Source: Candidatus Poribacteria bacterium (GTDB lineage Bacteria > Poribacteria > WGA-4E > WGA-3G). Taken from it: DNA of 64,000 nt. The stretch spans positions 3,807,812 through 3,871,811 of the forward strand of contig OZ244048.1 in assembly GCA_965215265.1 (NCBI GenBank), written 5' to 3'. A model generated the notes under the pieces. It saw only the letters and a program-made list of their open reading frames with translations. It was not told where the DNA came from and did no database searches. A program made the translations under genes and the position numbers. How positions within the stretch are numbered: position 1 is the stretch's first letter; each line of letters opens with the position of its first letter. Shown here in pieces: positions 2,135-51,110 of the stretch.

Positions 2135-2935
2135 ATGATCAAATTAGGTACGATGTCTCTGAACCTCAGAAATACAAACGCGACTGCCTTCGCACAAATC
2201 GTATACGAACTCGGTTTTGATGTTATCGAACTGCATTCAAGCGCGTTTGAATCTACCGATGCGAGTTACTTGCGTGAACTTAAGAAAAACCTGATGCGCA
2301 AAGGTTTACCGTTAGGGTACATCGGCATCAGCAATAATTTCGGTGTACCTGTTGACCAACATCCGGAGCAGATCGCCAGGATTAAGCAGTGGATTGACAT
2401 TGCCGCCTTTATGAGCTGTCCACTAGTTCGGGTCTTCGCCGCTTACGTGCCTGACGATTGTGAAAATGAGGAAACCTTATGGCCACCTATGATTGAAGCG
2501 TTCAAGGAGGTAGCTGAGTATGGATATGAAGCCGGCATTCTAGTGGGGTTACAGAATCACAACCATAACAATGTGACGCGCGATGGGGATGCTGTCCTAC
2601 GAGCCTTGAATGGAACGAACCATCCGTACTTCACGCATATCCTTGATACAGGACAGTACGCAGGCTCCCCCGGTGCAAGTGGCCATCGTGGTTCACCACA
2701 TCCGGATTACGACTGCTACACAAGTATTGAGCAGACCGCGCCGCATGCAGTATACGTCCGGACAAAATTCTATCAGATTGACAGTGGCGTAGAGGAATGG
2801 CTTGACTACCCGCGCGTTTTAGAAATCTTACGCGCTGTCGGCTATAACGGTTGTCTCTCCGTTGTTTATGAAGGTCCGTCCGACCCGGTTGAATCCATGC
2901 GAAAAGCAAAAAGTTATTTGCAATCATTACTATAG
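2135..2935 (+). CDS. sugar phosphate isomerase/epimerase (xylose-isomerase-like TIM barrel)
   Basis: Start chosen at ATG 2135 with SD aaggag 8 nt upstream (ORF track starts at 2096). Family call from overall similarity to AP-endonuclease-2/xylose-isomerase-like proteins. Family assignment is moderate. Confidence 0.55.
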   Translation: MIKLGTMSLNLRNTNATAFAQIVYELGFDVIELHSSAFESTDASYLRELKKNLMRKGLPLGYIGISNNFGVPVDQHPEQIARIKQWIDIAAFMSCPLVRVFAAYVPDDCENEETLWPPMIEAFKEVAEYGYEAGILVGLQNHNHNNVTRDGDAVLRALNGTNHPYFTHILDTGQYAGSPGASGHRGSPHPDYDCYTSIEQTAPHAVYVRTKFYQIDSGVEEWLDYPRVLEILRAVGYNGCLSVVYEGPSDPVESMRKAKSYLQSLL

Positions 2936-3077
2936 AGTCGACACCTGATTCGTCTGTTATTGCTACCATCAAATAATGCTAAACATCAAACCTAAGTATC
3001 TTGTCAATAACAATGGACAACAAGGGACGGAAAATCGCCACTGCAGTAGGTAAACCTAAAATCGAGGAGAAAACAGA

Positions 3078-9189: not shown

Positions 9190-10644
9190 CTACCGTGAAC
9201 CCTTTTTAATCGCCCACAACGTCTTCAAAATAATTTTCATATCCAAGCCGAGAGACCAGTTTTCGATATAGTACCGGTCATAACAGATACGCTCCTCAAG
9301 CGATGTATTGCCGCGTAGCCCGTTGACTTGTGCCCAGCCTGTCATACCACATTTTACACGCTGCCGCGCGAGGTAGTGCGGGATTGATTCACGAAACTCA
9401 TCGATCAGACCGGACATCTCCGGACGTGGTCCTACCAGGCTCATATCTCCCTTAAGCACATTGTAAAATTGGGGCAGCTCATCTAAACTCCACCGCCTCA
9501 GAAACTTCCCCAACGCGGTCTGCCGGGCATCATCCGGTGTTGCCCACGTGTGTCCAACCGCAGCCTCAGCGTCTTCACACATGGAGCGGAATTTGTAAAT
9601 CTCAAAACGTTTGCCTGCCCTACCGACGCGCTCCTGCCGAAAAATCGCTTTACCGGATGATGTCAACCGAATTGCTGCGGCAATCCCAAGCATCAACGGG
9701 CTCAAAACGACTAACGCTAACGTGCTGAAGCCAATATCTATCGTCCGTTTGACGATGCTCTGCCACCCCTGAATTGGGGACTCCCTTAACTGGATAACCG
9801 GAATACCTTCAAAACTCATAACAGTAGTGCGAGGGATATGCAATTCGTAGAACTCCGGCAATACGTTAATCTGAATTGGAATTCCTTCGCACACATTGAG
9901 AATATTGCTAATGTAGGCAAGACTACCGGGCATTGGACAGGTACGCGGTTCTGCCCCTTCAAAGCAGGCTTGGGCAATGAAGAGCTGATCCAACCGATAA
10001 TTTTGGATGAGTTGCGGCACGTTTTCGGTTCGTCCAATTAGCGGATGCGTAGGCATCTTAGTGGAATCTTCTCGTTCCTTTTCACTGTCTCTCACTGCGA
10101 TGTGTCCTACAAATTGGTAACCGCTGTGCTCGTTGAGGGTGTCTATCAGTTTTTCTACGGTTGGTGTGCAGCCGACGACAGCAACCCGACTGACACCGAC
10201 ACCTTGTGCTTGGATCGCCTGCCGAAAACGATGAATCGCAAGTCTTCCGAACGCCATCCAGATGAGGTTCAATCCTGAGGCGAGGAGCATGACCCACCGG
10301 GAGTATGCGTCGTGATGATAGATGAAAAATATCGCACCTAATGTGACGATTAACGTGATGATCGCTGCTTTACAGAGTCTCCAGAAAGCTTCAAAGGTGG
10401 CATTGCTCTCCAAGCGGTACAGTTTCAAGCCTTTCAAGGTCAAGAACCAGATAATCCCCATGAGTGGAATAAGGCGGAAATAGTCTGCCAGCGGCGGGGG
10501 TGCGCCTTTGTGAATCGCGACTGCCTCAAACCAGCCGGATGCGAAACGGAGCCAATACGCTACCAAAATAGAGGTGGCAACCAGACAGAGATCGAATAAA
10601 ACTGTGAGTGCGATAAGCAGATGGGCCAGTGTTTTTTGCGACAT
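9190..10644 (-). CDS. polyprenyl-phosphate sugar phosphotransferase (WbaP/EpsL-like, Bac_transf domain)
   Basis: Several N-terminal TM helices. C-terminal hallmark SLDELPQFYNVLKGDMSLVGPRPE. Confidence 0.85.
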   Translation of the reverse strand: MSQKTLAHLLIALTVLFDLCLVATSILVAYWLRFASGWFEAVAIHKGAPPPLADYFRLIPLMGIIWFLTLKGLKLYRLESNATFEAFWRLCKAAIITLIVTLGAIFFIYHHDAYSRWVMLLASGLNLIWMAFGRLAIHRFRQAIQAQGVGVSRVAVVGCTPTVEKLIDTLNEHSGYQFVGHIAVRDSEKEREDSTKMPTHPLIGRTENVPQLIQNYRLDQLFIAQACFEGAEPRTCPMPGSLAYISNILNVCEGIPIQINVLPEFYELHIPRTTVMSFEGIPVIQLRESPIQGWQSIVKRTIDIGFSTLALVVLSPLMLGIAAAIRLTSSGKAIFRQERVGRAGKRFEIYKFRSMCEDAEAAVGHTWATPDDARQTALGKFLRRWSLDELPQFYNVLKGDMSLVGPRPEMSGLIDEFRESIPHYLARQRVKCGMTGWAQVNGLRGNTSLEERICYDRYYIENWSLGLDMKIILKTLWAIKKGSR

Positions 10645-10708: not shown

Positions 10709-10741
10709 GGATTCGTCCCTGCTTTGCAGGGAGAACTTCTT
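10709..10741. repeat. 33-nt palindromic element (family C), inverted copy of 1195-1227
   Basis: GGATTCGTCCCTGCTTTGCAGGGAGAACTTCTT. Preceded by a T10 run. Confidence 0.6.
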
Positions 10742-10881
10742 AAAAATAGAATTGAGACTTTTCCTTTTAGTTTATAGGAATCATGTCAATTTCTCAACTA
10801 ATTTTGGACATTCTTCGCTTGCCTCGAATAGCATTGAACTTGGAAGAGCAAAACTTTTATAAGCCGTAAGGAGTGCCGGAG

Positions 10882-12111
10882 TCAGAAATAGACTCGAAAT
10901 GAGGAAAAGAAAACAGTGGAATACCCCCCGAACTCCGATCGGAATTGAGGGGTTTCGTTGTTTTCGGGGCGCTTTCCGATGCCGATGAAACCGCCGGCGG
11001 AGAGGTAAATATCCTCTGCGATGTTATATCCGAACTGAGAACCGACTAACGTCGACGGTTCAATTATATTGAAGAACATCTGTGAACTGCAAGTTATCAG
11101 ATGTGTCATCTGGTAAGTGAGTCCGGATACCAGATAGTGAATGCCCATCAGGTAAACCGCGCCATGGGTGTACGCCGGGCGAGTTAAATTGGTGCGGAAA
11201 TTTTCGGGGGACTTCGCGCCTGCCCCATTGAAATGATATTCAATAAACCCGTAAGTCTTGCCCCAAAAACTATAATCCAGACCGAGGGAAGTCCGCAAAT
11301 AGTTGTCCGATTCGTTGATATTACCGGCCGGAGGCTCCACAAGTACATAGGCAGTTTCTAACCAGAATCCCGCACCACCAATGCTGCGAGCGATATCCAA
11401 CCCTAACAGCAGGTTTCTGCGAAATTCTACCAATAAAATAGAGAAATCTGTCTCTACAGCATTCAATTGACTCCGGAGAAAGAAGGCACTTTTTTCAAAA
11501 TTGAAAGCATTGCCGAAGATATATCCGGTATCAAATTCTCCCATTATACCTATTGGAATACGGACCCGAATCGCATCCACGCCGATACGGTCTTCGGTAT
11601 CCAGTTGAGTGTAACTGTAGGGGGCAACGACATCGGTTGGGTTTATGGCGCGCGCACTTCCCCATGCAATCGCATCCCGACCGAGTAAGATATCCGCGAA
11701 ATTAGTACTGAACTGAACTGATGCACGATCAAGGTTATGATAGATGCTTACACTTCCGAGCTGTTCATTCTTGTCAGGATAGATTGTGGCATCAAAATCT
11801 GCAAGGCGATACTTGTATGGATTAGTTGCCACAGGAATTAGCGAATCAGAAAACAGCGATGGGTCTTGGACACGCGGTGTAAAATCGTAGGCGAAGGCGA
11901 AAGAAACGGTATCGGTCGGCGTATAAGAGAGATTGAGCCGGAGCCGGTTGACCACTGCCCCCATAATGGGTTGATTTGGCATCGGCGAATCCAGAGTAGT
12001 AAAAAAGTTTTTGTAGTACCCACCGATGTTGAGTTTTGTGGCTCCGTTTGCCTCGCTTAGGACAGTTGAGGTTATCATCAAAAGGATGAAGAATGCCAGG
12101 ATTTTTTTCAT
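10882..12111 (-). CDS. putative outer-membrane beta-barrel protein
   Basis: Signal peptide MKKILAFFILLMITSTVLSEA. Alternating amphipathic strands. C-terminal aromatic ...FRVYF. Sits upstream of the lolCDE-like genes. Confidence 0.4.
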   Translation of the reverse strand: MKKILAFFILLMITSTVLSEANGATKLNIGGYYKNFFTTLDSPMPNQPIMGAVVNRLRLNLSYTPTDTVSFAFAYDFTPRVQDPSLFSDSLIPVATNPYKYRLADFDATIYPDKNEQLGSVSIYHNLDRASVQFSTNFADILLGRDAIAWGSARAINPTDVVAPYSYTQLDTEDRIGVDAIRVRIPIGIMGEFDTGYIFGNAFNFEKSAFFLRSQLNAVETDFSILLVEFRRNLLLGLDIARSIGGAGFWLETAYVLVEPPAGNINESDNYLRTSLGLDYSFWGKTYGFIEYHFNGAGAKSPENFRTNLTRPAYTHGAVYLMGIHYLVSGLTYQMTHLITCSSQMFFNIIEPSTLVGSQFGYNIAEDIYLSAGGFIGIGKRPENNETPQFRSEFGGYSTVFFSSFRVYF

Positions 12112-14158: not shown

Positions 14159-15373
14159 TTAGTGCATCCGCATCGCCCTCGCGGACGTAATTCGGGCAGC
14201 TTTTATCGCTGGAAATAGACTCACTCCAATCGCTGAGAGCAGAACGGTGATGGCCGGAATAATGAGGCTACGGGTGTTGACCTCGGCATATATCTTATCA
14301 AATTTGATGCCACCGTAGGTAAATTCCTCCGGGAGTGTGATGCCGTATATTGATAGCAGATAATTAATTAAAACGCCAAGGAACATGCCGACAACAATGC
14401 TGACAACGGCGATAATGGCGACTTCGCATATGACCAGCCAGAAAATTTGCCTCGGCTTCGTTCCGACTGCTTTTAGCAGGCCGTATTCACGCGTCCGCTC
14501 CAGGACCGACATCAATACCGTATTCAGGACACTGATGGCGACAATAAGCATAATAATCATTCGTGCTACGGCATCTCCTTTTTTATCAGCTTGCATGGCT
14601 CGATAAAAGGATTTAGCAACCTCCTGCCAAGGGGAAACATCTAGCGTTAGATCCTTGAGGCGTGTCTCAAGTGCTTGTGTGATTTTACGGACACGGTTGA
14701 TATTCGAAAGTACGACAACCATTTCATGGACGCGCCCTTCAAGGACTAATAGCTCCTGAGCGTCTTGGAGGTTCAGATAACACGCCATCCGATCCGATCT
14801 ATCGTCGCCACTTTCTGCTATACCAACGATCGTATACATGTCATTCGCAATTGAACCATCGGCAGCCTGAGAAACAATTACAATTTCACTTCCCACTGTT
14901 CCAGAAAGAAGTCTCGCGAGTCCTTTTCCAATTATAGCTTCATGCGATGGCGTTTTCGCTGGCACTCTTCCTTCAATTACCTTTTTATCGAATTGGGTCG
15001 TTTCGGATTCTCGTTCTACATCAATTCCGATGATTTGGACAGTGGTACTCTTTTCACCAACCGATCCAAGCCCTGCTGCATACACTCGCGGTGTCCAAGC
15101 TTCGACCTCTGTGCTGCTTTGAATTATCTCACCGACAGACAGGTAAGCGTTGATTGTTTTGTAGAGAGACGGCTTATCAAGGTAGCCTTCGCGATGCACT
15201 TGAATATGCCCAATGCGGTTTCGCGTGAACATCTTGATTATGTTAGCGTAACCACCGTCTGACCAGCCGATGAAAATTGATGAGAGTGTAAATCCTACAA
15301 TCATTGCGAGAGCGGTAAGGATTGTACGCCGTTTTTGCCGGAAAATGTTACGAAATGCAATTTTGAGTATCAT
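14159..15373 (-). CDS. ABC transporter permease, FtsX/MacB family (second copy)
   Basis: Same topology as 12844-14073. The paired permeases with the ATPase resemble LolCDE/MacB exporters. Confidence 0.75.
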   Translation of the reverse strand: MILKIAFRNIFRQKRRTILTALAMIVGFTLSSIFIGWSDGGYANIIKMFTRNRIGHIQVHREGYLDKPSLYKTINAYLSVGEIIQSSTEVEAWTPRVYAAGLGSVGEKSTTVQIIGIDVERESETTQFDKKVIEGRVPAKTPSHEAIIGKGLARLLSGTVGSEIVIVSQAADGSIANDMYTIVGIAESGDDRSDRMACYLNLQDAQELLVLEGRVHEMVVVLSNINRVRKITQALETRLKDLTLDVSPWQEVAKSFYRAMQADKKGDAVARMIIMLIVAISVLNTVLMSVLERTREYGLLKAVGTKPRQIFWLVICEVAIIAVVSIVVGMFLGVLINYLLSIYGITLPEEFTYGGIKFDKIYAEVNTRSLIIPAITVLLSAIGVSLFPAIKAARITSARAMRMH

Positions 15374-16649: not shown

Positions 16650-16745
16650 ATAGGAGAAAAACAGTCATCTTCCTAGTAGGTAGCAGGTAAAAGGTTATCT
16701 TATCTCTCCTGAAAAGAGAGATAAAGAATATCTAACCTGCCACAA
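16650..16745. repeat. family-B-like hairpin repeat (partial)
   Basis: Contains stem-loop TATCTCTCCTGAAAAGAGAGATA. Related to the units at 25495-25640 and 27610-27725. Confidence 0.5.
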
Positions 16746-16747
16746 CT

Positions 16748-16930
16748 GCCTTTATTGTGCTAAAAGGTACTAAAAACGAGATTTGTGCTTAGGTTTTCAA
16801 AACATAAATAGTTGTTGTGCTGAAATATACTAAAAAACGAATTTATACAGTAACTGACAAAACATAAACCTTGATGGGGCTGAAATAGACGAATATACAA
16901 AGATGGGGCTGAAATAGACGAATATACAAA
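16748..16930. repeat. family-A modular repeat cluster incl. 2 x 29-nt perfect tandem
   Basis: GATGGGGCTGAAATAGACGAATATACAAA repeated at 16873-16901 and 16902-16930. Upstream modules CGAGATTTGTGCTTAGG / GCTGAAATATACTAAAAAACG are shared with 25.67, 27.77, 29.06 and 33.02 kb. Confidence 0.7.
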
Positions 16931-17056: not shown

Positions 17057-19606
17057 ATGGGAATAAAGAAATCACAACTTTACGCGTCTCTATGGGCGAG
17101 CTGCGATGAGCTGCGCGGTGGGATGGACGCATCACAATACAAAGACTATGTGCTGACACTGCTTTTCCTGAAGTCTGTGTCGGATAAGGCGGCAGTGCAT
17201 GGAGATGCGACGCTGATTGTCGTCCCCCCTGGCGGGGGGTTCTCCGATATGGTGAAGTTGAAGGGGAACAAAGACATCGGTGACAAAATCAATAAAATCA
17301 TCGGAAGATTGGCAGACGCCAATGAACTGAAAGGTGTGATAGATCAGGCGGATTTTAACGATGAGAGCAAACTGGGCAGAGGGAAAGAGATGCAGGACCG
17401 GCTCTCGAAACTGGTTTCTATTTTTGAGGGGCTTGATTTACGGGGGCATAGGGCATCGGCTGAGGATCTGCTGGGTGACGCGTATGAGTATTTGATGCGG
17501 CATTTCGCGACGGAGTCAGGGAAGAGTAAGGGACAATTCTACACCCCTGCGGAAGTGTCGCGCGTAGTGGCAAAAGTTATCGGCATCGGCCCAGACACGC
17601 CCCAATATAGGACTGTCTATGATCCAGCGTGTGGCTCCGGGTCTCTGTTGCTGAGGGCAAATGCGGAGGCGCCGCGGGGGCTGTCGGTTTACGGACAAGA
17701 GAAGGATCATGCGACTTACGCGCTGGCCAGGATGAACATGATTTTGCACGATACGGCGACGGCGGAGCTCTGGCATGGTAACACGCTCTCCGCGCCCTAC
17801 TTTCTGAACGCGGAGCATGGTTTGAAGACGTTCGATTTTGCGGTTGCGAATCCGCCGTTCTCGGACAAAGCGTGGTCAAACGGGCTGAATCCTGTGCATG
17901 ACGCTTATGGCCGTTTTGCGTATGGAGTGCCGCCTGCGAAGAATGGAGATTATGCTTTTCTGCTCCATTTCCTCGCCTCGTTGAAGAGCAACGGGCAGGG
18001 GGCGATAATCTTGCCGCATGGCGTGTTGTTTAGAGGGAATAGAGAAGGGGAGATTCGGAAAGCGTTGGTCAAGCGTGGGTTCATCAAGGGGATAATCGGG
18101 TTGCCTGCGAATCTGTTCTACGGTACCGGCATTCCCGCGTGTATTCTGGTTATTGACAAGGAGAAGGCGCCTGCGCGCCGTGGCATCTTCCTGATAGATG
18201 CGAGCCGGGGGTTCCTGAAGGCGGGTAACAAGAATAGGCTGCGTGCGCGAGATATTGATAAAATAGTGAGGGTGTTCACCGAACAGCGGGAGATGGCGGG
18301 TTATGCGCGGCTGGTGCCCGTGTCTGAGATTGCGAGTGCTGCGAACGCCTACAATCTGAACATCCCGCGCTATATCGATGCGAGCGAGGCGGAAGATTTG
18401 CATGACTTGGATGCCCACCTGAACGGTGGGATTCCTGAGAGTGAGCTTGCCAGCTTGGAGGGGTATTGGAAGGTATTCCCGACATTACGTGAGGAGTTGT
18501 TTGAGAGTGGCATCCGGCCGGGCTATAGCGATGTGCGCGTGGAAGCAGAAGCAGTGAAAAGCACGATTGTAGGACATCACGAGTTAGAAGTTTACCGGCG
18601 GGGGGTTGAGAGGTGTTTTCACGCTTGGCGTGAGGTTCACACGCGGCGTCTGTTTGGCATTGAGGTAGGGACATCGCCTAAAGCGGTAATTGATGCGTTG
18701 TCTGCGGATTTACTGACGTACTTTGCAGACGCGCCGCTGCTGGATGCGTATGATGTCTACCAAGGATTGATGGATTATTGGGAAGCGGTGATGCAGGACG
18801 ATGTGTATCTTATCGCTGCCGAGGGGTGGCGTGAAGGGGTGAAACCGCGCGCGCTGATTCAGGATAAGCGGATCAAGGAGGCACCGGACCTCGTCGTCAA
18901 GCGCAAGAAATATAAGCTGGATCTGATACCGCCGGGTCTGATTGTTGCACGCTACTTTTCGGATGAGCAGGCGGCTATAGAGTGCCTCCAAGCGTCGCAT
19001 GAAAGGGCAGCGCAGGAAGTTGAGGCGTTCGTTGAGGAACACGCCGCAGAGGGTGGTGCGCTGGCTGGGCTTGAAGGGGCGCGAGGCATAAGCAAGGGGA
19101 ATGTGCTACAGCGCGTGATGGAGTATAGGGACATTATTTTGAGGGAGTTTGCTGAAGGCACTGCTGCGTCTGAACAGGCGAAAGCGATTAAGAAAGCGAG
19201 TTTCGGTGCTTGCGCCTGGACGAAGGGCGTGAAGGATGCCGGGTGTCTGTTTGCGGAATTGGACGTTCTTTATGAGTATCTGCAGCTGATAGGGGAGGAG
19301 ACGCGCCTGCAGCGGCTGCAGAAAGAGACATCAGAGGCGCTGGCGGTTTCGGTGCTTGGGAAGTATGCGGAGCTGCGCGAAATAGAGATTAAGACGTTGG
19401 TAGTGGAAGGGAAGTGGTTAGCCAGTATCCATGGGGCGATTGAGGCGGAAATAGAAGGGGTGACGCAAGCGTTGACGGGGAGTGTGCAGGGGTTGGCGGG
19501 GCGTTATGCGATGCCGTTGCGAGAATTAGCCGTCAAAGTGTCAGCGTTCAGCGCGCAGCTGGAAGTGCATCTGAAAAATATGGGGATAGAGTGGACAGGG
19601 ATATGA
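17057..19606 (+). CDS. hsdM: Type I restriction-modification methyltransferase subunit HsdM (N6-adenine), with ~350-aa C-terminal extension
   Basis: HsdM N-terminus LYASLWASCDELRGGMDASQYKDYVLTLLFLKSVSD. Motif I VYDPACGSGSLL. Motif IV VANPPFS. 849 aa versus ~520 for a canonical HsdM. Confidence 0.9.
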   Translation: MGIKKSQLYASLWASCDELRGGMDASQYKDYVLTLLFLKSVSDKAAVHGDATLIVVPPGGGFSDMVKLKGNKDIGDKINKIIGRLADANELKGVIDQADFNDESKLGRGKEMQDRLSKLVSIFEGLDLRGHRASAEDLLGDAYEYLMRHFATESGKSKGQFYTPAEVSRVVAKVIGIGPDTPQYRTVYDPACGSGSLLLRANAEAPRGLSVYGQEKDHATYALARMNMILHDTATAELWHGNTLSAPYFLNAEHGLKTFDFAVANPPFSDKAWSNGLNPVHDAYGRFAYGVPPAKNGDYAFLLHFLASLKSNGQGAIILPHGVLFRGNREGEIRKALVKRGFIKGIIGLPANLFYGTGIPACILVIDKEKAPARRGIFLIDASRGFLKAGNKNRLRARDIDKIVRVFTEQREMAGYARLVPVSEIASAANAYNLNIPRYIDASEAEDLHDLDAHLNGGIPESELASLEGYWKVFPTLREELFESGIRPGYSDVRVEAEAVKSTIVGHHELEVYRRGVERCFHAWREVHTRRLFGIEVGTSPKAVIDALSADLLTYFADAPLLDAYDVYQGLMDYWEAVMQDDVYLIAAEGWREGVKPRALIQDKRIKEAPDLVVKRKKYKLDLIPPGLIVARYFSDEQAAIECLQASHERAAQEVEAFVEEHAAEGGALAGLEGARGISKGNVLQRVMEYRDIILREFAEGTAASEQAKAIKKASFGACAWTKGVKDAGCLFAELDVLYEYLQLIGEETRLQRLQKETSEALAVSVLGKYAELREIEIKTLVVEGKWLASIHGAIEAEIEGVTQALTGSVQGLAGRYAMPLRELAVKVSAFSAQLEVHLKNMGIEWTGI

Positions 19607-24825: not shown

Positions 24826-25008
24826 GAAAGGCTATTTGTATATTTCAGCACGTTAATGACTGATGTTTTGATAACCTTAGCACAAACCTCGTCGCCCGCC
24901 CACCTAAATCCTCTGATGTTTAGAATCATAACCTAGAACGGCTCTGGCGAGATGTACACGGGAACTTATCAAAGCATAAAGCGGTGTGGGGCTCTAGTAT
25001 ACAAAAAT

Positions 25009-25425
25009 ATGATGACTATATCTGATCTGCCGGCACTCAATGCCACATTAAATACAATCAGTGGGATACTGCTGATAAGGGGTTACATGCTGATTCGGCA
25101 ACGGAAAATTGTGGCACATAAAAACTGTATGCTCGCTGCGTTTGCGGTTTCAGTCCTTTTTCTTGTTTCTTATCTAATCTACCATTATAACGCCGGCTCA
25201 AAACCGTTTACCTTGCAAGGATGGATCCGGTATGTCTACTTTACCATCCTGATTTCGCATATCATTTTGGCGTTTCTGATTCCGCCGTTGGCTCTGCGGA
25301 CGCTCTATCTGGCATGGCGAGAACGGTTCACGCAGCACCGTCGTATCGCAAAGATAACGTTGCCGATATGGTTATATGTTTCAGTGACAGGAGTGTTGAT
25401 TTATCTGATGTTATATCAGTTGTAA
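25009..25425 (+). CDS. DUF420 family membrane protein
   Basis: Four-TM ~140-aa protein with a DUF420-like conserved N-terminus (LNATLNTISGILLIRGYMLIR). Confidence 0.55.
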   Translation: MMTISDLPALNATLNTISGILLIRGYMLIRQRKIVAHKNCMLAAFAVSVLFLVSYLIYHYNAGSKPFTLQGWIRYVYFTILISHIILAFLIPPLALRTLYLAWRERFTQHRRIAKITLPIWLYVSVTGVLIYLMLYQL

Positions 25426-25494
25426 AAGCAGTATTTCATATAGTGCAGCCCCACAATGCCTGATGTTGTGTCAATCACTGTGTACATCTCCTGA

Positions 25495-25745
25495 CAGGTT
25501 AGGTATTCTTTGTCTGTCCTTCAGAACAGACAAGTAGCGAGATAGGTATCTTTCTCTGTCCATGAGAGAAGATAACCTTTTACTCGCCACCCATTGGGCT
25601 AACCTTATCCATGCCATCTATAGATCCGAGCCTGCTTAGGTATAGTCTTTTGAAGTCAAAGCATCAGAAGGCTCCGACGAGATTTGTGCTAAGGTTATCA
25701 AAACATCAATCAGTATTGGGCTTCTGTAGACGAAAAAACGGAGAT
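25495..25745. repeat. composite repeat: family B (hairpin unit) followed by family A module
   Basis: GGTATTCTTTGTCTGTCCTTCAGAACAGACAAG...CCATCTATAGATCC, then GGCTCCGACGAGATTTGTGCTAAGG...TATTGGGCTTCTGTAGACGAAAAAA. Near-identical to 27610-27900. Confidence 0.7.
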
Positions 25746-27142: not shown

Positions 27143-27215
27143 GGGTGGGCGGGCGACGATCTATAGATGCCACCCACTGGGCGTTGATAGTACGGAGATA
27201 TACGAAAATACGAAA
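27143..27215. repeat. repeat patch incl. GATCTATAGATC palindrome and orphan leader module GTACGGAGATATACGAAAAT
   Basis: GGTGGGCGGGCGACGATCTATAGATGCCACCCAC...GATAGTACGGAGATATACGAAAATACG. The leader module points into the 3' end of ORF 27218-27559. Confidence 0.6.
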
Positions 27216-27217
27216 TT

Positions 27218-27559
27218 TTAGCCCCAAGGTGGCCTCCTACCAGTCAATTCAGCCAAATAGTCAGCTGTTTTGCGGACATCTGCATTGAGTTTCTTTTTCG
27301 CTTTCTTTGTGCCTGCATTTTCAGTGGTATAGGTTACACGGTAGTTTCCGTTTTTCATGCGCTGCAGTGCGTATTCGCCGGGGACATTCCGATTGACGTA
27401 CCGGAGCATATCGTGCAGCAGCCAATAGAGGTCTTCTGCAGAGTACCGGAGTTCATTATGCGCAGATTCTTTTTGTACTGCGTCGAGTGTCAGTTGAACA
27501 GCGTCAATAACTTCGGCGAGTGTATAGGATTTGTTTTCGGGTAAATGAATCGTGTTCAT
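27218..27559 (-). CDS. hypothetical 113-aa protein
   Basis: Starts directly after the repeat-borne leader GCCGAGATATACGAAAACATG. No identifiable domain. Confidence 0.4.
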   Translation of the reverse strand: MNTIHLPENKSYTLAEVIDAVQLTLDAVQKESAHNELRYSAEDLYWLLHDMLRYVNRNVPGEYALQRMKNGNYRVTYTTENAGTKKAKKKLNADVRKTADYLAELTGRRPPWG

Positions 27560-27900
27560 GTTTTCGTATATCTCGGCACCATCATTGCGTTTGTTTTGCT
27601 AGCTCGTGTGTTGGCAGGATAGGTGTTCTTTGTCTCTCCTTTCAGGAGAGACAAGTGGCGAGATAGGTAATCTTTCTCTGTCCATGAGAAAAGATTATCT
27701 TTTACCTGCCATCTATAGATCGGAGATGACTTAGGTAATGTCTTTAAAAATCAAAACATCAAAAGGCTCCGACGAGATTTGTAAAGGGTTTAACATAGCA
27801 GCAACCTTGTATTGGGCTCCTGTAGACGAAAAAACTAGATTTGTAAAGGTTTTAAGATTGCAGCAGCCTTTATTGGGCTCCTGTAGACGAAAAAAGGGTT
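27560..27900. repeat. composite repeat: leader module + family B hairpin unit + two family A units
   Basis: Hairpin GTCTCTCCTTTCAGGAGAGAC. Then GGCTCCGACGAGATTTGTAAAGG...TATTGGGCTCCTGTAGACGAAAAAA twice. The last ~7 codons and stop of the xdhC-like gene lie inside the final unit. Confidence 0.75.
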
Positions 27901-28985
27901 GGCATGCGGTTCGGAGTTCTATCAAAAGTTTGCAAGTTGTCAGATGCGTTGCGTATCTGAATTAATTGCGCTGCGATGCTGACAGCGATTTCCGGGACGG
28001 TTTTTGAGTTAATATCCAACCCGATAGGGGCGTAAACGCGTTGTAGATTTTCGGTGGAGATGCCCATTTCGGCTAAGTCGTCAAAGATGAGTTTTATCTT
28101 CCGGCGGCTGCCAATGAGCCCGATGTATCGTGCATCGGATTCAACGACGCTGTGAAGTGCGGACTCGTCGTGCTGATGTCCGCGCGTCACAATGACGACG
28201 TAGGTAAGATAATTAATGGGGTATTTGCGTAGTTCTTCAGCGATGTCGCCGATGATAATTTCGTCTGCTTCGGGGAGCCGTTCAGACGATGCGAAGTCGA
28301 CTCTATCGTCAACGATAGTAATGTCAAAATCCAACCAGTTACCGAGGTGACAGAGTGCCTGTCCGACGTGCCCAGCGCCTGCGATGAGCAAGGTGGGGCG
28401 CGGCTGCAGCGGTTCAAGAAAAACCGAGTGTGTTTGGTTAAGTTGGAAGAGTACTGGGCGGTTTTTTTCAAGAATGGAGTCTATTTTGCTATGTACGGTG
28501 GTTTCCAAGGCTGCATCACCGAGAGTGCCGATGCGCTCGCCGTTCGTTGCGAAGACCATCTTCATGCCGACATCCACACGGCCCTCTTCGCTTTTCACAA
28601 CTGTTGCACAAACGAGAGGTATCTTTCGGGCATTGAGTTGTTGTATACGCGTGAACATCTCTGCTTCATCGGTGGTCTTGGGCAAATCGATGAAGATTTT
28701 CATATTCCCCCCACAGATGAGGCCGTCGTCCCAACCATAGTCGCTATCCAATTGAAACTCAAGCAGTCGTGGTACCCCGCCCTGCATCAAGCCGATAGCT
28801 TGTCGGCGTGCTTCAGCTTCGACACAGCCTCCGCCGAGGGTGCCGATATTGCGAAGATCCGGAAGGATTAACAACTTCGAGCCGGGCTTTTGGGGTGTTG
28901 AGCCTTTCGTTTCGACAACGGTGCAGTAGGCACCGACTTGTGAAGTTTCAATAAGTTCTGGGATTTTTTTGTATATTTTTTTCAT
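27870..28985 (-). CDS. XdhC/CoxI-family molybdoenzyme maturation (MoCo insertion) protein
   Basis: N-terminal XdhC_CoxI region (AYCTVVETKGSTPQKPGSKLL...GTLGGGCVEAEA). C-terminal Rossmann LLIAGAGHVGQAL. Confidence 0.8.
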   Translation of the reverse strand: MKKIYKKIPELIETSQVGAYCTVVETKGSTPQKPGSKLLILPDLRNIGTLGGGCVEAEARRQAIGLMQGGVPRLLEFQLDSDYGWDDGLICGGNMKIFIDLPKTTDEAEMFTRIQQLNARKIPLVCATVVKSEEGRVDVGMKMVFATNGERIGTLGDAALETTVHSKIDSILEKNRPVLFQLNQTHSVFLEPLQPRPTLLIAGAGHVGQALCHLGNWLDFDITIVDDRVDFASSERLPEADEIIIGDIAEELRKYPINYLTYVVIVTRGHQHDESALHSVVESDARYIGLIGSRRKIKLIFDDLAEMGISTENLQRVYAPIGLDINSKTVPEIAVSIAAQLIQIRNASDNLQTFDRTPNRMPTLFSSTGAQ

Positions 28986-29085
28986 TTTCTTGTATATCTC
29001 CGTACCATCAACGTCTGTGTTTTGATGAGTCGTGTTATAAAGATTTTTACATTGCAGCAGCCTTTATGGGGCTGAAATATACTAA
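28986..29085. repeat. leader module + family A unit
   Basis: Reverse complement reads ...CAGACGTTGATGGTACGGAGATATACAAGAAAATG (xdhC-like start). Plus GCAGCAGCCTTTATGGGGCTGAAATATAC. Confidence 0.7.
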
Positions 29086-29964
29086 AGACTGTTCTTCCGC
29101 GCTATGTGCGACCAATTGTTTAAACACGTCGCGTTGTTCTTTAGTGAGTGAGAGTGGGACGATACCTTCCACACCGTCGGTTCCAATTTTTGCGGGGACG
29201 TTCAGGTAAACCGCCGTTTCATCCGTAGCGAGGTAAGTTCCAACACTCATCACCCGTTTTTTATCGTGGGCGATGGCTGAGATCACTTGCAATAGATAAC
29301 TAATCCATGTATATTCGCCGGTTGTTGGGGGAGTACTGGTCTCATTAAGGGTTTGCACCTCAATTTCGGGCATGATTTGTGATAAGGGTATACCGTTGAT
29401 GCGGCAGTATTGAGGGAGGGGGTGCGTCTCCTGGTCGTTTCCGATGGCGAGCACTGTCACATCCTTGACAGACATGTTTAGTTTTTTTGTAATTTGAGAG
29501 ATTAAATGTGCGGTTGCAGTGGGGTTCGCCAGTCCGATGACTCTATGTTGCGCTGCGGCAGTTGCCTGCTGTATCCATGCTGCCATGTAATTCGCTGGTG
29601 ATAGGGCAACTAATATCTTCGCATCGGGTGTGTGCTGCTGGATGGCAGGCACAAACTGCCGTGCCAAGGCGATGCTCGTTGTTTTAGATGCTTGTGGAGA
29701 GCGGAAGTGGTTTTGCCCTACCTGCGGCATCAGTACTACGATGTCCGCACCGTTGCATCCATCTAGTGTGGATACGAAAGAGAGTTGTGTATCACTGCGA
29801 CTCATCGCATTCGCCGCAACGAGTTCTTGTAGACTTTTCGGATTTATCCGCTTGGCAAACGTGCTTCCTGAGATGAAAGTGATTTGAGTCGCTAATTCTG
29901 CATGCCCTAAGCCCCATGCAAGCGGCAGTGCCAACTGACTTTCCCCTAATAAAACTATTTTCAT
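29047..29964 (-). CDS. lactate/malate dehydrogenase-like protein with degenerate dinucleotide-binding loop
   Basis: MKIVLLGESQLA replaces the canonical G-x-G-x-x-G. Overall LDH/MDH-like length. Start ATG 29964 follows leader GGTACGGAGATATACAAAAGAATG. The 75-codon extension in the ORF track reads through the repeat. Confidence 0.55.
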   Translation of the reverse strand: MKIVLLGESQLALPLAWGLGHAELATQITFISGSTFAKRINPKSLQELVAANAMSRSDTQLSFVSTLDGCNGADIVVLMPQVGQNHFRSPQASKTTSIALARQFVPAIQQHTPDAKILVALSPANYMAAWIQQATAAAQHRVIGLANPTATAHLISQITKKLNMSVKDVTVLAIGNDQETHPLPQYCRINGIPLSQIMPEIEVQTLNETSTPPTTGEYTWISYLLQVISAIAHDKKRVMSVGTYLATDETAVYLNVPAKIGTDGVEGIVPLSLTKEQRDVFKQLVAHSAEEQSLVYFSPIKAAAM

Positions 29965-30115
29965 TCTTTTGTATATCTCCGTACTATCAACGCTTATGTC
30001 ATGATAACTCGTGTGTTGGCAGGTTCGGTTTTTTTGTCTGTCCTTCAGGAGAGACAAAAAAACCTTATCCGGCCACATCAATCCGTATTGGGCTCCTATA
30101 TACAAAAAACCGAGT
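29965..30115. repeat. leader module + family B hairpin + family A fragment
   Basis: CCTGCCAACACACGAGTTATCATGACATAAGCGTTGATAGTACGGAGATATAC (rc). Hairpin TTTTTTTGTCTGTCCTTCAGGAGAGACAAAAAAA. Then CCGTATTGGGCTCCTATATACAAAAAA. Confidence 0.7.
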
Positions 30116-30118
30116 CTC

Positions 30119-32878
30119 CTATAAAAGGGTTTCAAGGATTGCCTGAAATTGTTCTTCAAGATGTTTCCGTTGTTTATCGATATCTGCATCGGCAGCGAGT
30201 TTTGTGGTGACGAGTTCGTCGTAACGTTCGACGTACTCCATCAAGGTTTCGACTTCTTTCTCGTAGCAAACGGCGGAGGCGAGGACCTTTTCTTTGAGGA
30301 ATAAAGGGAGTTCGGCGGTAGTAATCTGTGTGAGTTCCCAGCGCCACACCTTTTCGGAGATATAAGTCACAAACTGATTGAGAGGTTCACCCTTATAATC
30401 GGTTTCTTGGAGGACTTTAACCTCTTGTATTAACCCGAGTACGTGGTTAAAGAGTTCGTCAGGGAAGTTGTTTCTCAATTCCATGAGAATTCTACCGGTT
30501 GTAGATATCGGGATATGATTTTGCAGGAGGAACATCCGTAGGTTTGGATAATCGTCAACGCCTTTGCTATGTGCAAGCCATGTGTCGCCTATTTCTGGAA
30601 GTTCACTCAGATCGAAGCTAAGTACCTGTTTCTTCCGAATTTCCTCGAGTTTTCCGTCTCTAGGGTTGAGAGCTGCGGTGGCGAGGGTTGCTATAGCCGT
30701 TTGATGTCGATATGGCTCAAGAAACGCGATGAGATCCATGACTTTTTCTTGTTCGGCTTCGAGCGTCTGTAGGTGTTTAGGGTGGGCGGTTTTTGCCCGC
30801 CCACGTTTCTGTTTTTTACGAGTTTTGGGTGCATTCGTCAAGCGTGAAGCGCGTTTTTCAAGGATTTGGTGGTAATTGTGGAATTCTTCGCCGAGTGAGG
30901 CGAGTAGTGCATCGCCATGTATTGCCAGCATCCCCTCGGTGGTGATATCCGCCAATTGGTATCCGGTTTTTACGCTGAGTGCACGATTCAAATTTCGTTC
31001 AAGCACTTTCCGGTCTTTCTCATTTTGTATGATGAGTGTGCTGCCAAGGGTAAGGTTGATTAGCCTTTTCGTCTGTTCCGGTACACTGATGTTGATATCG
31101 CATGTCGGCTGGAACTTGTCGAGCAGCAGCTGCCGCAGTTTTCCATCAAGGAGTAGCGTCCACAAGTTTGCATAATGCTGTTGCAGGTTATCTGTGGTTG
31201 GTGCATTTTTGACCCACTGCTTTATGATGTTGAAATTAGCCTTGACATGGTTGAGAAGTGCCTCGCAATCGTCTTCGTTGATTTCAAAGCCGGCAAAGTC
31301 AGGCTGGTTTCGTTGTTGGACGGGTTGCTTTCGGCGGCGCGTTGGTGCCGTTTTAGGGCTTAACAAAATATCAACTAACGGTTGCGTAACGGTTTCAAAA
31401 TCTTGTCTATTTTCGCTTGTGTAGTTAGCGAGTGCGAGCAATTCTAACCAGACTGTTCTGAGCCGTTCCAGCTGCGTTGCATGTAAGGTAGAACGTAGGG
31501 CGATGCCGGAGATTTTTTGGCGCACCGATGCTCGCGTCCAGTTCGGCAGATAAATCTTATCCAGCGGTTCCCCATTCTCAAAAGTTAAGAGGTCAAGAGA
31601 CTTCGCGAGTCCGGGCTGTATGAAGTCGGTCTCAAAAATCAGGTCATGAAAAAGCCCGGCGGCCCTATCTAACACGTGATTGGTGAGTTTATAGCAGGAT
31701 TGGATGAGGAGGTTCAAGGTGAGTTGTTGATTATCTTCCAGCTGCCAAAACTCTATCATGGGGTCGATGTTGTGTATGAGAGTCTCAGTTTTCGCCTTTG
31801 CGGCATGCTCTTCAAACTCTTCGGTAAGATATTCTGTATAGAATTCGATAAACGTCATGATGGTATTGCGTAATTCTGCAATGACGAGTTCATCCCATAC
31901 CTTATTGTGAACACGTTGCCCGGGGGTGAGTACAAGTGCGCGCAAGCGGGTTTCAACGCCTTGTTGGAATTGGGTCATGAGTTGATATGCGTGCCGGTTT
32001 GCCTTGCGCATATAGGTTTCAATTTTCTCCGAGCTTTGGACAATTACCTCATGAATCTGTTGAGTAGGTGCAGTGAATTCGATCGGCAGTAACTGAAGTG
32101 TCTCCGGTTGAAGCGGATCGTAAACCGCGGCTGTTGGGAAGACCTTTAAGGAATCGGCATTAGTTGTTTCTGCTAAGGTGGTTTGAAGTGTTAAACCGTA
32201 TTCTAAATCGACAAGGTCTGGGTACTGCTTAATATGCGTACGGAGGACGACAAGTGCTACGTCGTAAGGATTTGCCTGAACCGTGTGATTCAGGATATCT
32301 TCATTGAGATGTAGTTGGTGGATATGGGTCTGTTCAGGAATAATAACTGTAACTGGTGGGATCTCCGCGTTCTCTTTATCTCTATGTTGCGCGAGTATAT
32401 ATCCGCCAGTTTTAATGGTGCTGGGAACAGTGAGCCGGACCTGTAAGATTTCCTGGGCGAGTTCTGACAGGGTCAGAGTTCTGCCTAAGTGTTGGACAGT
32501 AATGTCGGAGACAACACCGTCTGCGAAATCGGCAATTTGCCGTGCGTTCCGTTCTAGTTCTTGTATACTTCTATGAATTTTGTTATGATCGTCGTCCGTT
32601 TCGGCGATAATTTTGGCTTCGTCGAGCCAAGATGCCCATGCGCCCGGACGCGGTTTCATTTTGACAGTGAGTGTACCGTCTTGCGAGTCGAAGCCGGGCA
32701 GGATGTCGCCTTCGGATGTCGCCTTCGGTGTCCAAATAATAAGATGTTTATCGGTTTTGGCACCGAGCCCGATTCCGAAGGTATCCCCCCAACTCATTCT
32801 GCCTTCGACACTAGATTTGATTTTATCAGTTAGCGCGAAAAGCGAATCTGAATGAAAATTAAGTGATAAACCTTGCAT
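30119..32878 (-). CDS. large hypothetical protein (919 aa), no recognisable catalytic motif
   Basis: Uninterrupted 2760-nt ORF. Predominantly helical composition. No Walker A, DEAD, PD-(D/E)XK, HNH or HEPN motif found by eye. Flanked on both sides by repeats. Next to the MT-A70 MTase. Confidence 0.6.
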   Translation of the reverse strand: MQGLSLNFHSDSLFALTDKIKSSVEGRMSWGDTFGIGLGAKTDKHLIIWTPKATSEGDILPGFDSQDGTLTVKMKPRPGAWASWLDEAKIIAETDDDHNKIHRSIQELERNARQIADFADGVVSDITVQHLGRTLTLSELAQEILQVRLTVPSTIKTGGYILAQHRDKENAEIPPVTVIIPEQTHIHQLHLNEDILNHTVQANPYDVALVVLRTHIKQYPDLVDLEYGLTLQTTLAETTNADSLKVFPTAAVYDPLQPETLQLLPIEFTAPTQQIHEVIVQSSEKIETYMRKANRHAYQLMTQFQQGVETRLRALVLTPGQRVHNKVWDELVIAELRNTIMTFIEFYTEYLTEEFEEHAAKAKTETLIHNIDPMIEFWQLEDNQQLTLNLLIQSCYKLTNHVLDRAAGLFHDLIFETDFIQPGLAKSLDLLTFENGEPLDKIYLPNWTRASVRQKISGIALRSTLHATQLERLRTVWLELLALANYTSENRQDFETVTQPLVDILLSPKTAPTRRRKQPVQQRNQPDFAGFEINEDDCEALLNHVKANFNIIKQWVKNAPTTDNLQQHYANLWTLLLDGKLRQLLLDKFQPTCDINISVPEQTKRLINLTLGSTLIIQNEKDRKVLERNLNRALSVKTGYQLADITTEGMLAIHGDALLASLGEEFHNYHQILEKRASRLTNAPKTRKKQKRGRAKTAHPKHLQTLEAEQEKVMDLIAFLEPYRHQTAIATLATAALNPRDGKLEEIRKKQVLSFDLSELPEIGDTWLAHSKGVDDYPNLRMFLLQNHIPISTTGRILMELRNNFPDELFNHVLGLIQEVKVLQETDYKGEPLNQFVTYISEKVWRWELTQITTAELPLFLKEKVLASAVCYEKEVETLMEYVERYDELVTTKLAADADIDKQRKHLEEQFQAILETLL

Positions 32879-32950
32879 TGGGTTGATTCAATCGTTTTGT
32901 ATGGATAGGCTGCGGCAACGCAGACTCAATCTTTGTCGGCGTTGACAGCT

Positions 32951-33112
32951 TTTTGTATACAGGAGCCCCATAAAGGCTGCTGCAATCTTAAAACCTTTAC
33001 AAATCCTGTTCTTTCGTATATTTCAGCCCCATAAAGGCTGCTGCAATCTTAAAACCTTTACAACACGAGTTATCATGACATAAGCGTTGACGGTACCGAG
33101 ATATACGAAAAT
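32951..33112. repeat. family A repeats, 2 tandem units + orphan leader module
   Basis: CCCATAAAGGCTGCTGCAATCTTAAAACCTTTACAA twice (32965-33003, 33019-33063). Then CATAAGCGTTGACGGTACCGAGATATACGAAAAT with no ORF after it. Confidence 0.75.
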
Positions 33113-33121
33113 CGTCTTCAA

Positions 33122-34420: not shown

Positions 34421-34655
34421 GTTTTTCGTATACAGGAGCCCCATAAAGGCTGCTGCTTTGATAAATCCTTTACAAATCTCGTTCTTTCGTATACAGGAGC
34501 CCCATAAAGGCTGCTGCTATATTAAATCCTTTACAAATCTCGCCGGAGCCTTCTTATGCTATGAATCTAAACACCGGGCGGCTTCGACGAGATTTACACA
34601 CGAATTATTATTACATAAGCGTTGATGGTACGGAGATATACAAAAAAAACAATGC
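34421..34655. repeat. family A repeats: 2 x ~60-bp tandem units + orphan leader module
   Basis: GTT(T/C)TTCGTATACAGGAGCCCCATAAAGGCTGCTGC...CCTTTACAAATCTC at 34421-34480 and 34481-34541. Then GGCTTCGACGAGATTTACA and CATAAGCGTTGATGGTACGGAGATATACAAAAAAAACAATG (5-codon ORF only). Confidence 0.75.
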
Positions 34656-34696
34656 ATCAAGCGTTGTAGGGCTGCAGTATACAAAAATGCTCCTTG

Positions 34697-36196: not shown

Positions 36197-36595
36197 TGGA
36201 ATCGTCTCCTTAAAAAAGGTAAGATGCCAGAAAGTCTTCAGTGAGCACTGCACGGAAATATTCACGCCCGCCTTATCGCTACTGTCGACAAAAAAATGCA
36301 AACCCTAATATATTATAACACATTTTATCTTTTATGTCAACCTATTCCTAATTTTTTGCCCCGAACACGATGTCTCTTTTCCCCAATGATGTTTGCATAA
36401 GTGCACGACTTATACCAGAATTATAAAGGAAAACATAAATTATATCAAGAAATTTTTGTTATTTTTAGGTGTATTAGGAAAATAGAAAACTGATCAGATG
36501 ATTTCCAGCATCTGATAGGCTTCTTATTCACATCATGCCGAGGCTCGCCGATTCAGAGAAAATTGAATCGCCTATTGACTACAGTAAAAAAATCT

Positions 36596-43858: not shown

Positions 43859-44200
43859 ATTAACGTTCTCCTTCGTTTAAATTTCCATAAGGACTCGCGA
43901 ATTCTGTTATCAGGTTTTGGAAACTCAATATTATACAAAATTATAGCATAAATGTCTGAAAAAATGCAACTTTTTTGTGGGGTGTGTGGTGAGAGCGTTT
44001 TTAGTTGACAGCGTTTTGGTTTTTATGGTATCTTTAACACTTGAAGTCAATTCTCGCCTGCTGTCGTGCGCCAATGAATTTACCCTTTTTTGTAGTGTCC
44101 AGGGCTCACAGCCAAGAAAGTGTGTTATAAATGCTGTCTCGGTGTACAATTGCAGATAAGGCGAGCAAATCTGGGAATATATCTGTTTTGACACCAGAAT

Positions 44201-44319
44201 GCTAACCACTTCGGTTAGGGAGAACAAAAAATCGCCCAACGAGGCGAACGAGTCTGGTAGGATGTATCTATTTATGTGATTGTCCTAACCACTCCCGTTA
44301 AGGGGAGACGAAAAGGCAA
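44201..44319 (+). promoter_or_regulatory. duplicated 36-nt hairpin-containing motif upstream of tusA-like operon
   Basis: GCTAACCACTTCGGTTAGGGAGAACAAAAAATCGCC (44201-44236) and CCTAACCACTCCCGTTAAGGGGAGACGAAAAGGCAA (44284-44319). The second ends 8 nt before the ATG. Confidence 0.4.
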
Positions 44320-44326
44320 TTTGACA

Positions 44327-44578
44327 ATGAATTTACCCGATATCACGCCTGACGCTGTTTGCGATTTAGGCGACCTGAGCTGCGGAGACCTGATTATCGC
44401 GGTCTTAAGAGCGATGCGTCCTCTTGAACCGGGACAGATAGCACAAATCCGAGCAGTGGACCCGGGGGCACCTGTCGACATCGCGGCGTGGTGTAACATG
44501 AAAGGCAATGAACTTCTCGCAGATTGCTGTGGGGAAGACAAGGCCTATTTTTTTATTAAAAAAGGAGATCAGTACTAA
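44327..44578 (+). CDS. TusA-like sulfur-carrier protein (variant Cys motif CGD instead of CPxP)
   Basis: LGDLSCGDLIIAVLRAMRPLEPGQIAQIRAVDPGAPVDIAAWCNMKGNELL follows TusA two-layer alpha/beta pattern. Stop overlaps next start (TAATG). Confidence 0.5.
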   Translation: MNLPDITPDAVCDLGDLSCGDLIIAVLRAMRPLEPGQIAQIRAVDPGAPVDIAAWCNMKGNELLADCCGEDKAYFFIKKGDQY

Positions 44579-51029: not shown

Positions 51030-51110
51030 GTATATTCGTATATCTCCGTCCCATAAAGGTTTATGTTTTGTAAATTACTGTATAAATCTCGTCGGAGCCT
51101 CTTGATGTTT
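51030..51110. repeat. family A repeat unit inside RM island
   Basis: GTATATCTCCGTCCCATAAAGG...TGTATAAATCTCGTCGGAGCC. Confidence 0.6.

Follow-up and report, generated by a model that had tools for sequence, protein, structure and literature searches.

Probable derivation of a leader shared by three Poribacteria genes from the end of a modular intergenic repeat

Three consecutive genes of a Candidatus Poribacteria genome, all on the minus strand, begin behind much the same sequence, which raises the question of whether this leader controls them together or has reached them in some other way. The genes specify an LDH/MDH-like protein (ATG at 29964), an XdhC family protein (28985) and a conserved protein of 113 aa (27559), and the expected domains are present in the genes carrying the shared leader. 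Coordinates refer to a stretch of 64,000 nt (positions 3,807,812 to 3,871,811 of contig OZ244048.1, assembly GCA_965215265.1), which was analysed as a whole and is called the window. We consider that the leader is probably the conserved outer end of a species-specific, modular intergenic repeat of ~60 nt, resembling bacterial interspersed mosaic elements (BIMEs) and miniature inverted-repeat transposable elements (MITEs), which has colonised the operon junctions, and that it is not a dedicated control module.

The common leader and the repeat unit

The repeat end common to the leaders of the LDH-like, XdhC and 113-aa genes is ...GTTGATGGTACGGAGATATAC. Before the three ATGs the sequence runs …GTTGAT(G/A)GTACGGAGATATAC followed by six A-rich bases, with a degenerate version, ATGATGGTGCCGAGATATAC, in front of the 113-aa gene. 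The 23-mer GTTGATGGTACGGAGATATACAA occurs five times at ≤3 mismatches and not once in 100 shuffles, while GGAGATATAC occurs 12 times at ≤1 mismatch against an expectation of 2.2. A preliminary description of this DNA, in which the three starts were said to be preceded by one module, is borne out by these counts. It had also called the leaders near-identical, which holds for the terminal ~23 nt (mean pairwise identity 0.88) but not for the 29 nt farther upstream (0.51). The spacing it gave, seven bases between TATAC and ATG, is wrong by one (TATAC, 6 nt, ATG), and the GGAG it placed in every leader reads CGAG in the 113-aa copy. The extension CCTGCCAACACACGAG, farther upstream, was correctly reported before two leaders, and the orphan copies were recovered at 27183-27205, 33086-33108 and 34621-34643 (all plus strand), together with the further copy near 51 kb (51038-51047, minus strand). 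A fourth start, that of a DUF420 gene (ATG at 25009, plus strand), lies in the identical register behind a repeat subtype without GGAG. As the description assumed, the three ATGs are the real starts and are conserved, as shown by residue-by-residue alignment of the N-termini with those of orthologues from five other assemblies, and the DUF420 start was confirmed by N-terminal alignment in the same way.

The shared repeats are not an assembly artefact, since they are also present in L060, which was assembled independently and is 99.4% identical to the window. The motif GGAGATATAC is also found in the T7 gene 10/pET leader; vector contamination was rejected because the flanks differ from that leader and two independent assemblies hold all copies.

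The leader is one subtype (B) of a repeat unit of ~60 nt. A profile was built from 22 hand-picked units aligned end to end over ~62 nt, and its search (nhmmer) returned 23 copies in the window, 22 of them within 16.7-34.7 kb and one at 51.0 kb. Apart from the latter, the remaining ~46 kb of the window contain no units, and there are none in the additional ~8.7 kb by which the sequence of a sister strain (L073) extends beyond the left edge of the window. The A/T-rich consensus is close to ACGAGATTTGTAAAGG.TTTATCAAAACAT.AGCCTTTATGGGGCT....TATAC.AAAAA, with outer ends of the form …GG(G/T)NCNNNNN-TATAC-NAAAAN, and no internal hairpin is conserved across the subtypes; hairpins are found in separate central modules with which the units are combined, such as TTGTCTCTCCTGAAAGGAGAGACAA. 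Units occur singly or as tandem pairs with a period of 60-62 nt. In all ten unit-bearing spacers they point outward from the spacer centre (23/23 units), and each spacer is therefore an imperfect palindromic composite. The composites are 102-312 nt long and non-coding, with no open reading frame (ORF), and one of them (28987-29088) is 84% complementary to another (33010-33111). Their ends are inverted, the terminal 12-25 nt being complementary, and their arms are often of different subtypes. A REPIN-like conserved hairpin between the arms was also considered; it was rejected because the arms often differ in subtype and pair only over their terminal ~12-15 nt. Of the spacer DNA between 24.8 and 34.7 kb, 60% or more has detectable copies elsewhere in the window. 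The units and composites are as follows.

29962-30019, minus strand: B-subtype unit abutting the LDH-like ATG (29964); nhmmer E=3e-12, outer end …AGTACGGAGATATAC AAAAGA.
28983-29040, minus strand: B-subtype unit abutting the XdhC ATG (28985); identified by the 23-mer, the profile and the distance to the ATG.
27557-27612, minus strand: B-subtype unit, CGAG variant, abutting the ATG (27559) of the 113-aa gene; profile match.
24948-25011, plus strand: non-GGAG unit in the same register, abutting the DUF420 ATG (25009); outer end …GGGGCTCTAGTATAC AAAAAT, profile match.
29030-29090, plus strand: A-subtype unit facing the LDH-like 3' end (profile match), which forms an inverted composite of ~102 nt with the B unit at 28983-29040.
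27772-27896, plus strand: two tandem A-subtype units facing the XdhC 3' end; profile match.
27613-27771, no strand: central mosaic modules of the XdhC/113 spacer, two perfect hairpins of ~10 bp with flanking motifs; they recur at 25495-25676 and in part at 16672-16742 and 30025-30060, and the predicted fold here has a minimum free energy z-score of -4.2.
30025-30112, plus strand: hairpin module and an outward unit, the end of which comes within 6-9 nt of the 919-aa stop codon (30119); profile match.
27157-27212, plus strand: orphan B-subtype unit (GGAGATATAC) facing the stop of the 113-aa gene; 23-mer and profile.
32947-33113, both strands: MT-A70/919 spacer, with two A units (minus) that point at the 919-aa start from 68 nt away, the native leader being kept, and one B unit (plus) facing the MT-A70 stop; profile matches.
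34421-34688, both strands: IMPDH/Fer4 spacer, with two A units (minus) upstream of the retained native Shine-Dalgarno (SD) sequence of Fer4, a central segment, and one B and one C-like unit (plus) facing the IMPDH stop; profile matches.
25429-25740, no strand: composite of ~312 nt between the convergent DUF420 and CoxG genes, with an outward unit at either end and central hairpin modules; this spacer is 73 nt in L061, one of the related loci described below.
24831-24892, minus strand: unit facing the stop of the upstream PhyH gene, partner of 24948-25011; profile match.
16776-16927, plus strand: three tandem units, the last partial, directed toward hsdM (17057), 129 nt away; profile match.
51030-51093, minus strand: lone unit (GGAGATATAC) directed at the 3' end of an aminoglycoside nucleotidyltransferase-like gene, the sole copy in the window outside 16.7-34.7 kb; profile match. 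The ATG behind it opens merely a 39-aa antisense ORF.

At four of the seven start-facing outer ends (LDH-like, XdhC, 113-aa and DUF420) TATAC stands exactly 6 nt before the ATG, and nine of the ten stop-facing ends lie either 12-17 nt from the stop codon or within the end of the ORF. The conserved end adjoins stop codons as often as start codons, and over the terminal 23 nt the identity is 0.91 among stop-facing copies and 0.83 among start-abutting ones. Because stop-facing copies are equally conserved, the conservation of the unit end is a property of the repeat, as with the ends of transposons, and not of translation.

Searches outside this family gave little. Rfam returned no match at gathering score for the whole window, only chance miRNA-like hairpins (E >= 0.09), and no tRNA or tmRNA was found as an integration target. 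A scan of a genome-contig collection with a 17-nt pattern, too short for the purpose, produced chance matches in unrelated taxa only; patterns of 23 and 20 nt gave nothing or chance matches in metagenome contigs, and there were no matches to the repeat in the viral contigs scanned.

The operon in related Poribacteria

The nearest protein matches carry the annotation Candidatus Poribacteria. The locus was compared with seven loci from six other Poribacteria assemblies (L061-L066, L071, L072), in which XdhC is 76-85% identical. The gene order IMPDH-Fer4-MT-A70-919aa-LDH-XdhC-113aa-PhyH is kept in the relatives, with CoxG next in line in the window, L060 and L061, and a search of L061-L066, L071 and L072 with the unit profile found not one unit. 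The three junctions of interest compare as follows.

919/LDH-like junction: 7-11 nt of unrelated spacer in relatives (62 nt in L061); 154 nt in the window.
LDH-like/XdhC junction: -4 nt in L062 (ATGA overlap of stop and start) and 51-784 nt elsewhere; 61 nt in the window.
XdhC/113 junction: 1-8 nt in L063, L071 and L072, 33 nt in L061, and an extra gene in L062; 310 nt in the window.

The native leaders bear no relation to the repeat; that of the 113-aa gene in L061, for instance, reads GGGAGGATACCC-ATG. PhyH, 919aa and Fer4 had longer ancestral spacers with leaders of their own, and in these cases the native SD region has been kept and the units lie upstream of it. XdhC and the LDH-like protein cease to be homologous to their orthologues exactly at a unit end. 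Orthologues of XdhC continue …RMPTIKL…, while in the window RMPT is followed by the eight residues LFSSTGAQ and a stop (27870-27872), all encoded by the outer unit of 27772-27896. The last 13 residues of the LDH-like protein, SLVYFSPIKAAAM, and its stop (29047-29049) are read from the reverse complement of the unit at 29030-29090. The repeats were thus acquired in this lineage, since they are absent from syntenic relatives, native leaders are present there, and homology stops at the unit ends. They appear to have been wedged into a compact operon, where they overwrote three ribosome-binding regions and rewrote two C-termini. The preliminary description had proposed a mobile module that supplies an initiation region; that the leader is repeat-borne and secondarily acquired agrees with the orthologues in the seven repeat-free loci, which have leaders of their own, but its role as a dedicated initiation module could not be upheld.

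The same repeats are present in L060 (20 profile copies). The sole structural difference between it and the window is a repeat-for-repeat replacement in the XdhC/113 spacer (310 nt in the window, 123 nt in L060), where the central segment 27613-27771 is swapped for 39 nt, and the two sequences provide no clean empty site.

The probable course of events can be outlined from these comparisons. Mosaic clusters of the repeat would have colonised almost every gene junction over a stretch of ~18 kb, spreading by insertion and/or gene conversion between neighbouring spacers. Within each colonised spacer the units would have come to stand back to back, their outward ends running to the flanking coding sequence, start or stop alike. 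Among the 919aa, LDH-like, XdhC and 113aa genes, which were ancestrally -4 to 11 nt apart, a composite would have been wedged between stop and start, so that, at one end, it displaced the native SD and came to form all of the proximal 5' leader of the gene that follows. With its other end it took the place of the final codons of XdhC and of the LDH-like gene and supplied their stops.

The regular alternation of gene and repeat across eight consecutive genes, with imperfectly palindromic composites between them, might also suggest that the repeats mark the boundaries of mobile gene cassettes, akin to integron attC or dif-module sites, and the preliminary description had raised such a recombination boundary. 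We regard this as extremely improbable. The gene order is conserved in the seven related loci that lack the repeat, and no integrase, recombinase or transposase was detected in a domain scan that covered 50 of the 59 long ORFs of the window. As read from the sequence, there are no GTTRRRY/RYYYAAC core sites and no dif-like palindromic arms; the units also form tandem arrays and intrude into coding ends.

Other Poribacteria have different intergenic repeat families of their own at the same junctions. L062 carries GCATCGAGACCGGGAGGTCTCTCCTACG hairpins (11791-12049 and 3122-3267), L063 has ATAAACATATCGTTCCTACGGAACTCAAAA units with a period of ~48-51 nt (9782-9859, 14898-15234 and 17929-18057), and a 41/46-nt tandem array lies upstream of XdhC in L066 (8921-9568). 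Filling of junctions by lineage-own repeat families looks like a habit of the phylum, and a literature search found no paper describing repeat-filled junctions in Poribacteria.

Several neighbouring features were seen in the course of this comparison. The 113-aa protein (27218-27559, minus strand; invariant C-terminus …LTGRRPPWG) and the 919-aa protein (30119-32878, minus strand) have no Pfam domain; their size and their position beside XdhC are kept in five syntenic assemblies (L061, L062, L063/L064, L071, L072), and they are unknown partners in the XdhC/CoxG/PhyH operon. L065 and L066 have a different neighbourhood, in which a gene of 121/126 aa replaces the 113-aa gene. Upstream of IMPDH, L062 has five tandem paralogous small genes (106-120 aa; 1098-3177) with near-identical leaders; these form an array produced by gene duplication and are no case of a repeat-borne leader. 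In L072 an IS200/IS605 element (Y1 transposase and OrfB/TnpB; 44-1730) lies directly upstream of IMPDH in the same operon, and has no link to the repeat units of the window.

Translation, transcription and coupling at the junctions

Could the leader nevertheless be a regulatory device? With its GGAG and A-rich spacer it looks like a ribosome-binding site, the same 23 nt stand in the same register before the ATGs of three consecutive genes, and all three sense-oriented B units abut starts. REP2 of Neisseria and the IR repeats of Borrelia are precedents (PMC3184786). On this evidence the LDH-like, XdhC and 113-aa genes might be under the common control of a dedicated leader of the REP2 type, providing a promoter and/or a ribosome-binding site, a reading that we find improbable. 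Of the seven B-type ends, four point at stop codons and are no less conserved there, and GGAG is not enriched at starts, being kept in two of the three start-abutting B-type ends and in three of the four stop-facing ones. Of the 23 units, 4 lie immediately upstream of an ORF and reach its ATG, ribosome-binding region included, and there the GGAG of the repeat sits 12 nt from the ATG. Native GGAG motifs stand 5-9 nt from the start codon (27 cases among 83 called genes of the related loci; mode 7). The case for the GGAG as a shared ribosome-binding site is therefore weak, and the common translational control put forward in the preliminary description finds no support for the same reasons, with CGAG in one leader and no GGAG at DUF420. 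Furthermore, the unit contains no sigma-70-like promoter, relatives express the same genes without the repeat, and the genes are inside an operon with a canonical promoter of its own. This promoter, a perfect sigma-70 sequence (TTGACA-17 nt-TATAAT), was found upstream of IMPDH at ~36296-36340 on the minus strand, and probably drives the whole IMPDH…CoxG operon.

The genes are intact and conserved in both strains, and the repeat-borne leader must therefore permit initiation; the LDH-like, XdhC and 113-aa genes are presumably still translated from it. About half of the genes in these genomes have no obvious SD sequence. Initiation may depend mostly on the A-rich, weakly structured 6-12 bases before the ATG, with a contribution of the GGAG that would be modest at best. 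The likeness of the three leaders would, in that case, be a by-product of the spread of the repeat and not the signal of a regulon.

The interval of 6 nt between TATAC and the ATG, present in 4/4 start-abutting copies, is that to be expected of a -10 element in leaderless mRNA. An outward promoter that has TATAC as its -10 element and produces transcripts with a very short leader or none is nevertheless very hard to support. A -35 element at a distance of 16-18 nt is absent, and the invariant T at -7 is missing from TATACA. A consensus scan of 24.5-35 kb found 16 promoters where 13.5 are expected, which is no excess, and the same end points into gene 3' ends in 10 cases. These genomes, moreover, use canonical TTGACA-17-TATAAT promoters and SD-led genes. 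Two other candidate sites were inspected by eye and set aside: an extracytoplasmic function (ECF)-like CGTATA in reverse orientation has no matching -35, and an integration host factor (IHF) site at the unit centre (TATCAA-N4-TTR) finds partial matches only.

The composites may also be considered as portable intercistronic adaptors, one end of which would bring a usable initiation region and the other a tail and stop codon. The two ends would pair, and the start would become exposed when the terminating ribosome of the upstream gene melts the 5' arm, recreating the coupling of the ancestral overlapping junctions. The ancestral junctions were indeed overlapping or 1-11 nt long, and in each of the four start-abutting cases the genes on either side run in the same direction. 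The outer ends pair in the folds predicted for all three junctions (UUUUUUGUAUAU with AUAUACAAAAGA; z = -1.5, -3.1 and -4.2), and a modelled terminating ribosome raises the predicted accessibility of the start from 0.58 to 0.88 for XdhC and from 0.36 to 0.60 for DUF420. However, the start of the 113-aa gene (0.29 to 0.33) and that of the LDH-like gene (0.30 to 0.36) show no such gain, and the fold of one junction (z = -1.5) is no better than shuffles. The closing helix is A/U-rich and weak, and would arise automatically in any element with inverted ends. Like composites also lie between convergent genes (25429-25740), where coupling is meaningless. A coupling function is possible but unproven, and as a full account of the composites we rate the adaptor as unlikely. 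The same low expectation applies to its extension, in which the composites would be self-propagating adaptors whose register stems from targeted or microhomology-guided (A[C/T]GA) copying and not from transposition. If true, an adaptor of this kind would let a selfish repeat invade even the overlapping ATGA junctions of essential operons without polar damage.

We return, then, to the reading of the leader as the outer end of a colonising repeat, and several observations weigh against it. The unit ends exactly at the ATG in 4/4 start-abutting cases, which is tighter than random insertion followed by selection predicts. All three sense-oriented B units abut an ATG, compared with one of the four outermost sense-oriented units of other subtypes (Fisher p ~0.11, calculated by hand), and this may reflect some selection of the GGAG-bearing B subtype at starts, although the numbers are too small. 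A classical MITE mechanism in particular is not demonstrated, no target-site duplication having been seen at any composite end (24831-25011, 25429-25740, 28983-29090, 29962-30112, 32947-33113 or 34421-34688) and no transposase in the ORFs scanned. Finally, the copies are strongly clustered, and the sequence examined amounts to ~73 kb of a 4.83-Mb genome. The position at which unit end and ATG meet is also where the next tandem unit (ACGAGATTTG…) would begin, and all four genes start with ATGA. The start register, the missing target duplications and the clustering can be accounted for by local copying, through recombination or microhomology, no less readily than by classical transposition.

The locus provides an example, from an uncultivated phylum, of the speed at which operon junctions can be remodelled by short repeats. 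In a single species lineage, junctions that overlapped or measured 1-11 nt became structured spacers of 61-310 nt, with three ribosome-binding sites replaced and two protein C-termini rewritten, and with no reading frame disrupted. For annotation, identical leaders at this locus should not be read as a regulon, and repeat-derived tails are to be expected in these proteins.

Other elements of the window and known repeat systems

Elements of other kinds are also present in the window. A 35-nt hairpin element, GGATTCGTCCCTGCTTTGCAGGGAGAACTTCTTAA, occupies 10709-10743 and has a second, inverted copy at 1193-1229. It is absent from L073 (99.3% identical), where the empty site reads GAAAATTAA/AATAG, and because a TTAA duplication flanks it, it is a recent insertion of a tiny palindromic mobile element. 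A second shared leader, unrelated to the repeat described above, is found at 44186-44330 (plus strand) and 56627-56786 (minus strand), immediately in front of a TusA-like and a DUF362 gene and oriented in sense to them. Its two copies share 72-79% identity over ~130 nt and consist of two tandem CTAACCACTYCSGTTAGGG-type hairpins, then an A-rich stretch and a ribosome-binding site. It matches nothing in Rfam, and could be a leader with a cis-regulatory role or a further repeat family. Two tandem duplications, one of 33 nt (97% identical; 62785-62850) and one of 51 nt (82%; 63686-63787), lie just before and inside, respectively, a gene for a 321-aa protein that has several paralogues in the same genome.

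Of the known systems, BIME/REP (repetitive extragenic palindrome) clusters are extragenic mosaics in which short units in alternating orientation are combined with small motifs, within operons and after 3' ends; they are recombination hot spots and are transcribed as structured intercistronic RNA (PMC3184786). The Poribacteria repeat shares with those of enterobacteria and pseudomonads the organization in extragenic mosaic clusters, the alternating units and the accessory motifs. It differs in that its unit is ~60 nt long and A/T-rich, not a G+C-rich palindrome, and in that its ends reach up to, or take the place of, the sequence next to starts and stops. Among the window ORFs scanned there was no RAYT (Y1 transposase) gene.

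MITEs such as the Correia elements of Neisseria, ERIC and RUP are co-transcribed with genes, insert near or into gene ends, and are able to provide signals for expression or to lengthen ORFs at the 3' end (PMC3184786). The composites resemble them as small (<~500 bp), non-coding elements with inverted ends and a lineage-dependent presence, being absent from the seven syntenic loci. The Poribacteria repeat departs from them in having no target duplication and no parent insertion sequence (IS) identified in the ORFs scanned, and in its heterogeneous arms, its tandem arrays and the marked clustering of its copies.

In Neisseria REP2 and Borrelia IR-A, a repeat lies directly upstream of unrelated ORFs and provides the ribosome-binding region up to the ATG (PMC3184786). 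The Poribacteria repeat, too, reaches the ATG in 4 of its 23 units, where it may supply this region. REP2 itself has no terminal inverted repeats, has a promoter and is found mainly upstream of genes, whereas no promoter was found in the Poribacteria unit, most of its copies face stop codons, and the spacing of its GGAG is atypical. With the palindromic elements of Rickettsia and other in-frame repeats it has in common that repeat sequence has turned coding (8 residues of XdhC and 13 of the LDH-like protein, each with the stop), but it affects only terminal tails and makes no internal insertions. The target duplication of a MITE, the G+C-rich palindrome of a REP and the promoter of REP2 are all missing, and the family is therefore a member of none of these and is classified by its behaviour. 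It is a new, lineage-specific family that behaves as a known kind of intergenic repeat.

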